Shown here piece by piece: positions 7,166 through 25,324 of a stretch of 25,324 bases of DNA. The first letter of the stretch is position 1. Every line of letters starts with the position of its first letter. This stretch comes from Eledone cirrhosa. Its lineage: Eukaryota. The translations under genes and the position numbers were made by a program. Location: NCBI GenBank assembly GCA_964016885.1, contig CAXHJY010000324.1:1-25324 (forward strand), given 5' to 3'. Under the pieces are notes generated by a model. That model had not been told where the DNA came from. It worked only from the letters and a program-made list of their open reading frames with translations, and ran no database searches.

Positions 7166-7466
7166 ACTATGTGTGTGTGAGAGTGTATATGTATGTATAT
7201 ATATATATATATATATATGTGTGTGTGTAAATATGTGTGTGGGTGTTTGGGTGTATGTATGTATATGTATGTATATATATGTATGTATATATATATGTAT
7301 GTATATATGATATACATATATACATGCACCCAAACACATGTACACATACATATACACACACACACAAACACATACATATACACACACACACAAACACATA
7401 CATATACACACACACACAATATATATATATATATATATATATATATATATATAGAGAGAGAGAGAG
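7166..7466. repeat. Compound (TA)/(TG)/(CA)/(GA) microsatellite
   Basis: Directly visible. Confidence 0.95.
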
Positions 7467-7565
7467 AAAATTGAGGTTGGTAATGGCACATGGAATATAT
7501 AAGAGACAGAATACTTTTTTGTGAAAAAACAATTTTATAAGGTAAGGAAATAATAAAGGGTATAA

Positions 7566-7613
7566 AAAATGACCGGTTTCGATGGGTCTGCAAAAGCCAT
7601 CTTTTCAAATGTT
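7566..7613 (-). ncRNA. Type I hammerhead-like ribozyme, U3-A8 core variant (left arm)
   Basis: Exact reverse complement of 10042-10089. Confidence 0.6.
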
Positions 7614-8907
7614 GATTAATATTAAGAAAAATTAATAATACGAAGAGTTAAAATTTGAGACTTGAAAATTCAAGTATAAAATTCATTGTGGGATTTCATA
7701 GCAGTTTTCATCTTGGTAGCAACAACAGGTTGACTGCTGTGTCCCTTTCTGGTAGTGAATGAGAAGTTATTTGGGGTGTGGGTTATTTTATAAAGGTCAG
7801 ATTTAGCAATCGCCAGCTGCTGGTCAGTGAGGGGGTGGAAGCAATATACATACACATATCTTCCTGTGATGGGTAGGAGAGTGGAGCGTGATAGAAAGGG
7901 ATTTAGTGCACTTACACCTATATATACACACATACCTTCATCCACACATACATACATATACATATACATATATACACACATACATACACACACACATACA
8001 TACACATATACACACACACACATATATATATATACACATACACACACACACACACATATATATATATACACATACACACACACACACACATATATATATA
8101 TACACATACACACACACACACACATATATATATATACACATACACACACACATATATATATATACACATACACACACACACACATATATATATATATATA
8201 TATATATATACACACACACACACATATATACATACACATACATCCAGATACACACATACATACACACACATATATATATATACACACATATATATATATA
8301 TATATATATATATATATATACACACACACACACACACCCCCACACATACATACACACACACACACATATATATACATACACACATACAAACATACACACA
8401 CACATATATATACACACACACACACACACACGCATATATATATATATATACACACATACGCATACATCCAGATACCCACATACATACACACACACGCACA
8501 CACAATACATACATCCACATGCACACACATACACACACACACACATATACACATACATACACCCACACACAGAGAAATGGCCTTCAAATATATATATATA
8601 TATATACATACATACAGACACATATTTTTTCCATAATATAAGAAGTTGGGGCAGTGAAATTAAAATACAAGTCATTCTGATCACATTGAGTTCTTCATGT
8701 AGATTGGGCCCCGCAACCGACAGTGGTGAATTCTGTGTGCGCATATATATATAGATATATGTGTGTGCACGTGCAGGGTTTAACATGGATGTGTTGGTCA
8801 CACAAAGGCATGGTCTGTCAATGAATAAACCTGATTCTACAGAATTGGTCTCTGGTCTTTAATAGTAGTGATTCCGTGCGTATGTGTGTTTATATTTTAT
8901 GACAATT

Positions 8908-8949
8908 CTATTGGGGTGATAACCCGTTTAGTTTTGGTTTAAATTTGTT
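8908..8949 (-). pseudogene. C-terminal remnant of a Penelope RT/GIY-YIG ORF
   Basis: NKFKPKLNGLSPQ*; (I)xxFKPxLN is the typical end of the Penelope GIY-YIG domain; the match is short but lies upstream of a hammerhead-bearing 3' region on the same strand. Confidence 0.6.
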
Positions 8950-10041
8950 AAACCCTGCACGTGCACACACATATATCTATATATATATGCGCACACAGAA
9001 TTCACCACTGTCGGTTGCGGGGCCCAATCTACATGAAGAACTCAATGTGATCAGAATGACTTGTATTTTAATTTCACTGCCCCAACTTCTTATATTATGG
9101 AAAAAATATATGTGTCTGTATGTATGTATATATATATATATATATATATTTGAAGGCCATTTCTCTGTGTGTGGGTGTATGTATGTGTATATGTGTGTGT
9201 GTGTGTGTATGTGTGTGCATGTGGATGTATGTATTGTGTGTGCGTGTGTGTGTATGTATGTGGGTATCTGGATGTATGCGTATGTGTATATATATATATA
9301 TATGCGTGTGTGTGTGTGTGTGTGTGTATATATATATGTGTGTGTATGTTTGTATGTGTGTATGTATATATATATGTGTGTGTGTGTGTATGTATGTGTG
9401 GGTGTGTGTGTGTGTGTGTATATATATATATATATATATATATATATATATATATATATATATATGTGTGTATATATATATGTGTGTGTGTGTGTGTGTA
9501 TGTATGTGTGTATCTGGATGTATGTGTATGTATATATGTGTGTGTGTATATATATATATATATATATATATATGTGTGTGTGTGTGTATGTGTATATATA
9601 TATATGTGTGTGTGTGTATGTGTGTATGTATATGTATGTGTGTGTGTATGTATGTGTGTATATGTATATATATATATATATATATATGTATATGTATATG
9701 TATGTATGTGTGGATGAAGGTATGTGTGTATATATAGGTGTAAGTGCACTAAATCCCTTTCTATCACGCTCCACTCTCCTACCCATCACAGGAAGATATG
9801 TGTATGTATATTGCTTCCACCCCCTCACTGACCAGCAGCTGGCGATTGCTAAATCTGACCTTTATAAAATAACCCACACCCCAAATAACTTCTCATTCAC
9901 TACCAGAAAGGGACACAGCAGTCAACCTGTTGTTGCTACCAAGATGAAAACTGCTATGAAATCCCACAATGAATTTTATACTTGAATTTTCAAGTCTCAA
10001 ATTTTAACTCTTCGTATTATTAATTTTTCTTAATATTAATC

Positions 10042-21068: not shown

Positions 21069-22037
21069 TACATATATGTATGTGTACCTGTATGTATATA
21101 TGTATATATATATATATATATATATATATATATATATATATGCATGCTACTGTACGTCTGTATACATATATGTATGTACGTATACATACATACTTACATA
21201 TATATATATACATATTATATTTATACATATACATATACATATATATATATATATACATATACATATACATATATATACATATACATATATATACATATAT
21301 ATATATAATACATATATATATATACATATACATATATATATATACATATATATATACATATATATATATACATATATATATATACATACATATATATATA
21401 TACATATACATACATATATATATATACATATATATATATACATACATATATATATATACATATATATATATATACATATATATATATATATACATATATA
21501 TATATACATACATATATATATATACATATATATATATATACATATATATATATATATACATATATATATATATATACATATATATATATACATATATATA
21601 CATACATATATATACATATACATATATATACATATACATATATATATATATACATATACATATACATATATATATATATACATACATATATATATATATA
21701 CATATACATATACATATATATATATATACATACATATATATATATATACATATACATATACATATATATATATATACATACATATATATATATATACATA
21801 TACATATATATATATATACATATATATACATATATATATATATACATATATATACATATATATATATATACATATATATACATATATATATATACATATA
21901 TATATATATATACATATATATATATATACATACATATATATACATACATATATATATATATACATATATATACATATATATACATATATATATATATATA
22001 TATATATATACATATATATATATATATACATATATAT
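21069..22037. repeat. (AT)nAC compound microsatellite
   Basis: Directly visible. Confidence 0.95.
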
Positions 22038-22594
22038 ATGGTGGCTGCCAACTCGTTTTCGAGTACGGCCACTACTTTATATCCATGTAGGAGAACCCCT
22101 ACCGATGCGCTAAACGAGTGACTTTTTAGTCCAGCCAGCGACTTGAAAACTCTGGTACAAACACTACACTTGTGACAATTATTGACACATAGTGCTGGGC
22201 CCATGGTACCATGTGACGACAAGTGCAGAGAGATCTCCAGATATAAAGCAATGCCTGTGCCGTGAAGCTTTTATAGTGAGCAAAGGCACTGCACAAAGCC
22301 AGTCCCACTCTCTAACCAAGATGATATTTACCAAAAAGAAGAACAAGTCAACATCATTGGATACCATCAGGGTTGCAGGTGTTATATCAGAGTTTTCCTT
22401 CTCCTAGAATTCTGCCTTGACAAAGGCTAAGGGGTCATCTCTCCCGGTGATTTTGGATGGCCATTGACTCTTAAGAGCTCCTTTGCCCTTTGACAGGTTT
22501 TGTTTTTAGTCCTGCAGGATGTCCAAAGTCACCCTCCTCACCAAGAAACCTTGGTGGGGTTGCCAGTTTAGTCGCCAACGACCGACCATGAGAC
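22038..22594 (-). mobile_element. Non-autonomous, internally deleted RTE-derived element (5' UTR-like part + C-terminal zinc-finger remnant + 3' end with TA tail)
   Basis: 22118-22174 encodes [19 protein letters not shown] (C2H2-like RTE ORF end); the 5' part with ctaggagaaggaaaactctg resembles RTE 5' UTRs; ends gagttggcagccacca(ta)n. Confidence 0.65.
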
Positions 22595-24941
22595 ATATAT
22601 ATATACATATATATATACATATATATATATATATACATATATATACATATACATACATATATATATATATATACATATATATACATATATATACATATAC
22701 ACATATATATATACATATATACATATATATATATACATATACAAATATATATATATATACATATATACATATATATATATATACATATATATATACATAT
22801 ATATATATATATATGTATATATATATATATATATATGTATATATATATATATATATATATATATATATATATATATATATATATATATATATATATATAT
22901 ATATGTATATATATATATATATATGTATATATATATATATATATATGTATATATATATATATATATATGTATATATATATATATATATATGTATATATAT
23001 ATATATATATATATATATATATATATATATATATATGTATATATATATATATATGTATATATATATATATATATATATATATATATATATATGTATATAT
23101 ATATATATATGTATATATATATATATATATGTATATATATATATATATGTATATATATATATACATATATGTATATATGTATATACATATATATATATAT
23201 ATATGTATATATATATTTATATGTATATATATATATACATATATGTATATATGTATATACATATATATATATATATATATACATATATACATATATATAC
23301 ATATATATATATATATATACATATATATATATATACATATATATACATATACATATATATATATATATATACATATACTATACATATATATATACATATA
23401 CATATATATACATATATATATATATATATATATACATATATATACATATATATATATATACATATATATATATACATATATACATATATACATATACATA
23501 CATATATATATACATATATATATACATATATATATACATATATATATACATATATATATACATATATATACATATATATATACATATATATATATATATA
23601 TATATACATATATATATACATATTATATATACATATATATATACATATATATATACATATATATATATATATACATATATATACATATATATATACATAT
23701 ATATATACATATATATATATATATACATATATATAATACATATATATATACATATATATATATAATATACATATATATATACATATATATATACATATAT
23801 ACATATATATATATACATACATATATACATATATATATATATATATATACATATATATATACATATATATATATATATATACATATATATATATATACAT
23901 ATATATATATATATACATATATATATACATATATATATATATATATACATATATATAATATATATATATATATATTATATATATACATATAATATATATA
24001 CATATATATATATACATATATATATATATATATACATATATATATACATATATATATATATATATATACATATATATATACATATAATATATATATATAT
24101 ATACATATATATTATACATATTAATATATATATATATACATATATATATATATATATATACATATATATATACATATATATATATATATATATATATATA
24201 TACATATATATATATATATATATAATATACATATATATATATATACATATATATAATATATATACATATATATATACATATATATATCATATATATATAT
24301 TAATACATATATATATATATATATAATATATATATATATACATATATATATATATACATAATATATATATATATATACATATATATATACATATATATAT
24401 ACATAATATATATATACATACATATATACATATACATATTATATATACATATATATATATATAATATATATATATACATATATATATATATACATATATA
24501 TATATATACATACTATATATATATATATATACATATATAATATATATACATATATATATATATACATACATATATATATATATATATACATATATATATA
24601 TACATATATATACATATATATATATATACATATATATAACATATATATATATATACATATATATATATATACATATATATATATACATACATATATATAC
24701 ATATATATACATATATACATATATATATACATATATATATATATACATATATATATATATTACCAATATATATATATTAAATATATATATATATAAATAT
24801 ATATATATATACATATATATAAATATACATATATATATATATAATATATATATACATATATATACAATATACATATATAATTATATATATATACATATAT
24901 TATATATACATATATATACAATATAACATATATATATATAT
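22595..24941. repeat. (AT)n compound microsatellite with a G-interrupted (inverted-polarity) block at ~22815-23150
   Basis: Directly visible; increasingly irregular toward the window end. Confidence 0.95.
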
Positions 24942-25212
24942 AAAGTTGTAATAAAATGAAACGAAATTTCATTTCTCACTCTTAATTTTCATAAGGAAAG
25001 TATCTACTTCGAACGTTCAACCATCTGGCAGAAGGGTATACGATGCTGATGATAGCTAACAAGCTTGAAACTAGTACATCGTTCCTGTGTCAGTGTTGAA
25101 CAAAAAGGTGACGTGGTTGCCTTAACACCGTACGGCATAAATTCAGGCTGTTCAGTTTGTTTACAAACGAACAAAGCGGGGCGCTATAATAAGCGTCCGC
25201 TAAACTGATACG
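24942..25212 (+). mobile_element. ~270-bp hammerhead element, copy 2
   Basis: Matches 20800-21068 apart from homopolymer indels and one substitution. Confidence 0.65.
25040..25082 (+). ncRNA. Type I hammerhead ribozyme (copy of 20900-20942)
   Basis: Identical 43-nt motif. Confidence 0.85.
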
Positions 25213-25324
25213 TACATATATGTATGTGTACCTGTATGTATATATGTATATATATATATATATATATATATATATATATATATATATATATATATATATG
25301 CATGCTACTGTACGTCTGTATACA

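Follow-up and report, generated by a model that had tools for sequence, protein, structure and literature searches.

Already published for Penelope-like elements (PLEs) are TA targeting, the inverted arm and tail of inserted copies, hammerhead ribozymes in the pseudo-long terminal repeats (pLTRs), the U3-A8 variant of the hammerhead core, a Hydra-clade PLE of Octopus, and the dependence of retrozymes on PLEs. These are the described systems closest to the locus considered here, a (TA)n microsatellite with hammerhead-bearing insertions in Eledone cirrhosa; the stretch analysed, hereafter the window, is an entire unplaced 25.3-kb contig (CAXHJY010000324.1; 25,324 nt) of the 3.0-Gb assembly of this animal. 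The Hydra clade inserts into (TA)n and has the member Hydra-1_Obim in Octopus bimaculoides (Craig et al., 2021; PMC8557442), and the U3-A8 core is known from Schistosoma PLEs (PMC4209133). In vitro, both strands are nicked and extended by Poseidon PAc, and the tail of a PLE is explained as the stretch between two internal start sites of reverse transcriptase (RT), downstream of the hammerhead (Frangieh et al., 2024; PMC11167929). A rolling-circle route from a circular molecule has been proposed (PMC4209133; PMC7229834), with circle-templated tandem complementary DNA (cDNA) as the route of retrozymes (PMC7229834; Li et al., bioRxiv 10.64898/2026.07.22.740005).

The 12 hammerhead motifs of the window belong to four families, A to D, which are ordinary members of these known groups (Table 1). 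We consider it probable that they represent separate insertions into TA repeats, A and B being truncated PLEs, and C and D being retrozymes likely integrated in trans by PLE enzymes.

Table 1. Features of the window, in order along the contig; ends are counted in nt from the predicted cleavage site, and retrieved loci carry the prefix L.
Feature	Positions	Strand	Details
A, short arm: 3' untranslated region (UTR) and last codons of a Neptune-type PLE	7463..8951	-	Matches the intact element of L091; U3-A8 core at 7608; predicted cleavage after 7571; end at +108-110, joined to (TA)n through (CT)7
A, long arm: same 3' UTR	8946..10230	+	Core at 10047-10053; predicted cleavage after 10084; end at +146, tail of ~37 nt, then (TA)n
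SINE-like fragment, no hammerhead	10311..10414	+	Three more copies, 89-91%, among retrieved loci
3'-terminal remnant of element E, 17 nt long	10460..10476	-	At the 5' junction of B; assigned by sequence
B: 5'-truncated 3' UTR of a Hydra-clade PLE	10478..11512	+	Core at 11328; predicted cleavage after GUU at 11359; long end at +153, then (TA)n; assigned by end and reading-frame motifs
(TA)n/(TACA)n microsatellite between islands	11513..25324	none	Integration target; assigned by pure-TA fraction
C, long arm: tandem 310-bp units	14637..16075	-	Five cores, at 16069, 15760, 15451, 15141 and 14831; ends at +165 in (TA)n
C, short arm, behind a complex fold-back junction	16076..16615	+	Cores at 16144 and 16455; ends at +130 in (TA)n
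D: inverted 45-nt long-tail piece, then truncated 460-bp unit	20801..21199	+	Core at 20906; predicted cleavage after 20936; internal microsatellite from ~21069; true short end ~21199
Element E: 3' end of another non-LTR-type repeat, no hammerhead	22039..22590	-	Ends in TA/CATA repeats
D, second copy, cut by the contig end	24942..25324	+	Core at 25046

A strict descriptor of the type I hammerhead recovered ten of the motifs with a perfect CUGANGA core (one in B, seven in C and two in D), and no match in any of five shuffles of 400 kb; the A motifs (10047 on the plus strand, 7608 on the minus strand) are matched only if the U3-A8 core and one mismatch in stem I are allowed. The minimal stem III sequences ACCGGU (A), ACAUUGU, ACGCGU and ACUAGU are as reported in the first-pass annotation of this DNA; its statement that almost every island carries a hammerhead is borne out by the 12 motifs, but not by the islands at 10311-10414 and 22039-22590. 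The Rfam model Hammerhead_1 scores B at 29.1 bits, below its cut-off of 34, and HH9 scores D at 19.9 bits, which is sub-threshold; Rfam returned no hammerhead match for A or C. Covariation is seen in stem I of C and D, with an unchanged core, among units found with a pattern that itself required an intact core.

The ribozyme-dense island, which had been read as built by the activity of a Penelope enzyme, is not special. A background sample of 40 systematically spaced 10-kb stretches (400 kb in total) holds 20 strict hammerheads from several families, or 5 per 100 kb, which extrapolates to roughly 150,000 genome-wide; 17 of the 20 lie within 200 nt upstream of a (TA)5, compared with 19% of random positions, and 14 of 17 do so once three D-like motifs with an internal TA tract are set aside. 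The density in the window is explained by one seven-motif array and a very large TA target, pure TA runs of at least four units making up 47% of bases over 7446-25324 as against 5.2% in the background stretches. Moreover, the two D copies, 4.14 kb apart, have the same junction and the same private variant, and differ by one substitution and by short indels that lie near the contig end; they therefore represent one insertion, either duplicated or misassembled, so that the window holds about four hammerhead insertion events.

By sequence, family A is a truncated copy of an intact endonuclease-bearing (EN+) PLE, whose Neptune/Nematis pattern is assigned by motifs and not by a tree. The intact element, found in L091 and L093, consists of a pLTR, open reading frame (ORF) 1, a 777-aa ORF2 with RT and GIY-YIG domains, and a second pLTR; the unit measures 4936 bp in L091, where hammerheads that far apart flank the ORFs, and the 3' UTR of 1.25 kb contains internal microsatellites. 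ORF2 scores above the cut-off for RVT_1, carries an NLIY..YIG motif, and has relatives annotated as RVT_1, many of them also as GIY-YIG; its further motifs are GLKF, DKG, YLDD, a CX4CxxC linker (CGRTNCGTC) of the type common to Neptune and Nematis, and a CCHH GIY-YIG (CGGC..H..H). In GLKF, DKG, the linker, the CCHH GIY-YIG and the upstream ORF1, A resembles the described Neptune/Nematis EN+ PLEs (PMC8557442; PMC3846280), as it does in its partial tandems, its inverted arm and its tail, of ~37 nt against their 30-40 bp (PMC3846280). It differs from them in having a U3-A8 core in a very young family, and a variable (CT)n at the short end. A 44-nt motif of A has 1834 exact copies genome-wide, and the 30 best loci are 100% identical over 331 bp. 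Its predicted hammerhead has the U3-A8 core, a 5-bp stem II and ACCGGU; the same core recurs, again with ACCGGU as stem III, in an unrelated family at L178:7500-7550. ORF1 has no Pfam match; it overlaps ORF2 in another frame around a T run and a G run (L093:3441-3620, L091:4846-8373), and a frameshift between the two is possible. Another Neptune-type PLE, ~46% identical to A, has its own hammerhead ~380 nt past the stop (L096, L152, L172).

Family B represents the 3' end of a PLE that is placed in the Hydra clade by its motifs rather than by a tree. From 2734 first-look candidates, 40 were scored; the ORF upstream of the end, of ~900 aa, carries RWR, DKT, YRDD, CNCRVSANC (CxCX5C), CNLC (CxxC) and CPH (CxH), and lacks GxKF and CCHH. 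With its RWK-like motif, DKT, CxCX5C, CxxC/CxH, a canonical hammerhead core (CUGAUGA) and insertion into (TA)n, B is like the Hydra clade (PMC8557442), although its unit of ~4.6 kb in L094, with a 3' UTR of 1.9 kb, exceeds the “generally” <3 kb given there, which is a tendency and not a defining mark. B is also abundant, forms pLTR tandems and has a tail of ~100 nt; we liken it to Hydra-1_Obim by description only. Several further Hydra-type families are present (L095, L151, L159, L174, L181). The Penelope-type architecture suggested in the first-pass annotation is supported, and, among the retrieved loci, autonomous PLEs with matching 3' ends, which it proposed to look for, were found for A and B and not for C or D.

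Families C and D are, as far as their sequence tells, non-coding retrozymes with one predicted type I hammerhead per unit of 310 and 460 bp, respectively, in agreement with the earlier suggestion that small non-coding ribozyme RNAs are involved. A 43-nt motif of C has 4033 exact copies genome-wide, in head-to-head arrays of 310-bp units, and the units contain no ORF of 80 aa; the 460-bp unit of D, slightly above the retrozyme range of 150-450 bp, includes an internal TA tract starting at +133. Both families resemble metazoan non-LTR retrozymes in their non-coding tandem units, their thousands of copies and their co-occurrence with PLEs (PMC7229834; bioRxiv 10.64898/2026.07.22.740005), and in having one type I hammerhead with a short palindromic stem III per unit (PMC7229834). 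Whereas the retrozymes of those papers form head-to-tail arrays with target-site duplications, the arms of C and D stand head-to-head, and their long and short ends are fixed and lie in (TA)n; no pLTR homology of C or D to A, B or 18 diverged PLE 3' regions of the retrieved loci was found. The monomers are predicted to fold as stable circles (z of -4.0 for C and -10.4 for D, the latter inflated by the internal TA tract).

Some further observations concern these two families. Older tandem relatives of C (~75% identity; L016, L050, L052, L139, L172, L187, L202) keep the tail region and have different or decayed hammerheads, and an older D subfamily is also common (L159, L161, L185). Changes private to single C units are skewed on the sense strand, with 11 T>C and one A>G (L137-L146, L197-L208; position 92 excluded; a few of the counts are junction artefacts); this may reflect RT errors in each round or editing of an antisense template. 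Two candidate clues were rejected: a C-like piece past a Hydra-type ORF in L095, considered as a link to a driver, is a separate TA-bounded insertion, and a closed 340-nt C contig (310 nt plus overlap) in sequencing runs X1 and X2 would arise from a circle and a tandem array alike, and is not evidence.

The ends of all four families were surveyed in loci chosen by best match or exact pattern, that is, in similarity-selected samples. The preference for (TA)n is confirmed throughout. For A, 29 loci were used, L058 being left out because it duplicates L057; each of the 28 non-tandem long arms stops at +146 and is joined there to (TA)n, counting the window copy and three loci with a shared flank. 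For B, 27 of 30 loci have the exact end motif, and, two tandem junctions apart, the other 25 all join TA runs; C ends in TA in 21/21 cases, at +163-170 or +130 (139 with microhomology). D ends lie at +241 to +253 or at +305/306 in 24 of 25 cases, with one, interrupted by another insert, at +228, and 23 of the 25 are joined to TA. In the background, (TA)4 follows 5.3% of positions; after non-repeat sequence the figure is 1.0%.

That the TA tracts were added by RT at insertion, and not targeted, strikes us as very unlikely. The CT stutter at the short end of A, described below, does suggest reiterative synthesis, and (UA)3-4 is present in the long end of A and the short end of C; however, the long ends of B, C and D have no UA repeat and yet join pure (TA)n, truncated 5' ends abut TA as well in L083 and L089, and Hydra and Naiad PLEs have been described as preferring (TA)n (PMC8557442). 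Tandem junctions of B, C and D, furthermore, lack (TA)n at the long end, so the TA tract is not part of the unit.

The short and long ends lie at about 108/146 (A), 52/153 (B), 130/165 (C) and 245/305 (D), giving tails of ~37, ~100, ~35 and ~60 nt, and no end of C or D coincides with the hammerhead cleavage site. Of the cleavage-to-TA distances in the first-pass annotation, those of A (+146), B (+153) and C (+165) hold, whereas the 133 nt given for D marks the internal microsatellite, and none of the 25 D ends lies there; the similar spacing claimed for short arms fits A (+108-110) and C (+130) and is broken by B (+49-53). A shared rule of cleavage-to-end spacing was accordingly rejected, the ends ranging from ~50 to 305 nt; no sequence common to the ends of A to D was found, and the search for a common fold at the start sites yielded hairpins close to the long end for B and D and no consistent structure for A and C. 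These results bear on the original proposal that one Penelope enzyme mobilises all four families through a shared hammerhead-to-end spacing. All four do use (TA)n and two fixed ends, and the long ends of A, B and C fall within 146-165 nt; but A and B each have an enzyme of their own, the two being only distantly related, from different PLE clades and with ~24% identity over the best 140-aa block; end distances and tails differ, and the ends have no sequence in common. We regard a single enzyme, which is already contradicted for A and B, as highly improbable.

The second regularity lies in the pairing of the arms. One long and one short end were found in 9/9 two-armed copies of A and in 21/21 two-armed C arrays for which both ends could be seen, as well as in 5/6 two-armed copies of D; the short end of B lies at +49-53 in 8/8 two-armed copies. 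At the short end of A, 3-15 CT units are present in 11 of 13 copies, while the template and 13/13 long or tandem ends have 2 (1-15 units separate the short end from (TA)n in the window, at 7453-7466, and in L044, L045, L056, L091 and L209-L216); this excess looks like RT stutter, or reiterative synthesis, at initiation. If reiterative, it would seed (TA)n(GA)n compound microsatellites.

The two arms of an insertion also share haplotypes. A rare C variant, first seen in L142, has 47 occurrences across the genome, one per unit: five arrays account for 39, and eight are singletons. Four of the five arrays, on four chromosomes, are two-armed, and in these it fills both arms; the singletons sit in arrays with other array-wide haplotypes or none. 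Among 22 two-armed C arrays, ten match the commonest unit on both arms and 12 carry variants; the arms are identical in 11 of these 12, the twelfth sharing 9 of 11 positions, whereas arm pairs taken across arrays are identical in 5/156 cases among variant arrays and in 86/462 overall. For B, variants are shared at 14 of 1351 sites within insertions and at 11 of 9053 between them, and the arms of A share source variants, 22 of them in L211.

A common haplotype on both arms is what self-priming would predict, in which the head-to-head layout arises by fold-back, possibly on an antisense template, and the hairpin DNA is cut in a staggered fashion and joined to (TA)n; this model was proposed by Arkhipova et al. 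(2013; PMC3846280), and the C junction of the window and some others (L044, L205) are near-palindromic. Most C junctions, however, show an offset of tens to hundreds of bases and overlap only briefly, and the longer arm can be either one, in C and in A. Of 12 copies of A, six have a short arm that extends further 5', four a long arm that does so, and two have arms that are level, which disfavours a fold-back copy of long-arm cDNA; the CT units at the short end of A look like an initiation site, and nicking of both strands, with extension from internal sites of the RNA, has been observed in vitro (PMC11167929). Self-priming is, for these reasons, doubtful.

Array-wide private variants imply passage through one unit followed by expansion, which rolling-circle copying would provide. 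The arrays of C and D could instead derive from linear multimeric RNA transcribed from existing arrays or from satellite-like unequal crossover, with no circle and the hammerhead as a passenger; hammerhead mutants still insert in vitro (PMC11167929), and local tandem expansion is favoured by Li et al. (bioRxiv 10.64898/2026.07.22.740005). Such a route has to account for private variants (146T>C in L206, a four-position set in L203.1) that fill both inverted arms of young arrays and differ from array to array; this pattern calls for passage through a single unit and subsequent expansion. If linear templates were copied with 5' truncation, arrays would only become shorter. We judge it unlikely.

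The reading of A and B as truncated PLEs, and of C and D as retrozymes integrated in trans, would be realised as follows. The GIY-YIG domain would nick both strands of (TA)n, and the two 3' ends so made would prime reverse transcription on one template RNA, at its two internal start sites; the resulting arms would lie head-to-head and meet where their inner ends are truncated. In C and D this RNA is likely a monomer circle, which hammerhead cleavage, probably in dimeric form, and ligation by the host would produce; rolling-circle synthesis on it would account for arms of up to 15 unit pieces. The pairing of one long with one short end, together with the explanation of the PLE tail as the stretch between RT starts, points to PLE-type integration of C and D. 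More tentatively, and with rather less than even confidence, we propose that PLE enzymes of at least two clades perform asymmetric twin priming on a single RNA, using the long site on one strand and the short site on the other; on a retrozyme circle both RTs would roll round the same molecule, and the Neptune-type RT would stutter (CT)n at the short start, much as telomerase adds repeats. With Poseidon PAc no strand bias between start sites was reported (PMC11167929), whereas here one long and one short end occur together, with a shared haplotype.

Several points weigh against this reading. A self-primed hairpin, a homogeneous multimeric transcript or gene conversion would likewise give both arms one haplotype, and in B the long arm reaches further 5' in 8/8 copies, an outcome that the selection of loci favoured. 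No PLE with a C- or D-like 3' end was found among the A and B UTRs or the 18 diverged PLE C-termini of the retrieved loci, so that trans-mobilisation of C and D rests on architecture. Stem I of A is weak (four A-U pairs and a mismatch), and B is predicted to cleave after U (GUU). Hammerhead cleavage is dispensable for insertion in vitro (PMC11167929), and Li et al. (bioRxiv 10.64898/2026.07.22.740005) report cleavage in only 1/9 Xenopus retrozyme dimers. As loci were picked by best match or exact pattern, young copies are over-represented; and the left flank of the window has no second copy in the assembly that could serve as an empty allele.

Dual oxidase exons lie in the left part of the contig, on the minus strand, at 3890-4010 and 5483-5875. 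One exon shares 92% identity with Octopus bimaculoides and 87% with Argonauta, which makes an octopod host probable. On that strand the insertion-bearing microsatellite is located upstream of these exons, possibly within an intron, and the flank at 1500-6300 is covered by identical contigs in the DNA sequencing run X3, which may derive from the source sample. The fragment nearest to A is presumably a SINE. Element E, which we take to be RTE-like, encodes a weak C2H2 finger (zf-C2H2, under the cut-off); the truncated 5' end of B is fused to 17 nt of E, which indicates that B replaced or landed beside an E copy.

Neither a retrozyme from an octopus, nor retrozyme arrays with two arms and fixed ends, nor CT stutter was found in the literature, although supplements and Repbase or Dfam may list the families; we also did not find in print the long/short end rule of C or its shared arm haplotype, and the word “ribozyme” is absent from the main text of the octopus repeat paper. 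The origin of the inverted arm and tail of PLEs, and the mobilisation of retrozyme circles by PLEs, are questions posed by earlier work (PMC11167929; PMC7229834; PMC3846280; Li et al., bioRxiv 10.64898/2026.07.22.740005), and the junctions provide a testable clue to the mechanism. Because the families are very young and supply junctions by the thousand that are almost identical, along with intact candidate enzymes from two clades, these questions become testable in this animal, the long/short rule, the shared arm haplotype and the CT stutter being direct predictions for experiments in vitro. Hammerhead elements are a sizeable part of its genome, by the strict count in the background sample; and asymmetric twin priming, if true, would provide one mechanism for the inverted pLTR, the one-sided tail and the tandem retrozyme arrays.

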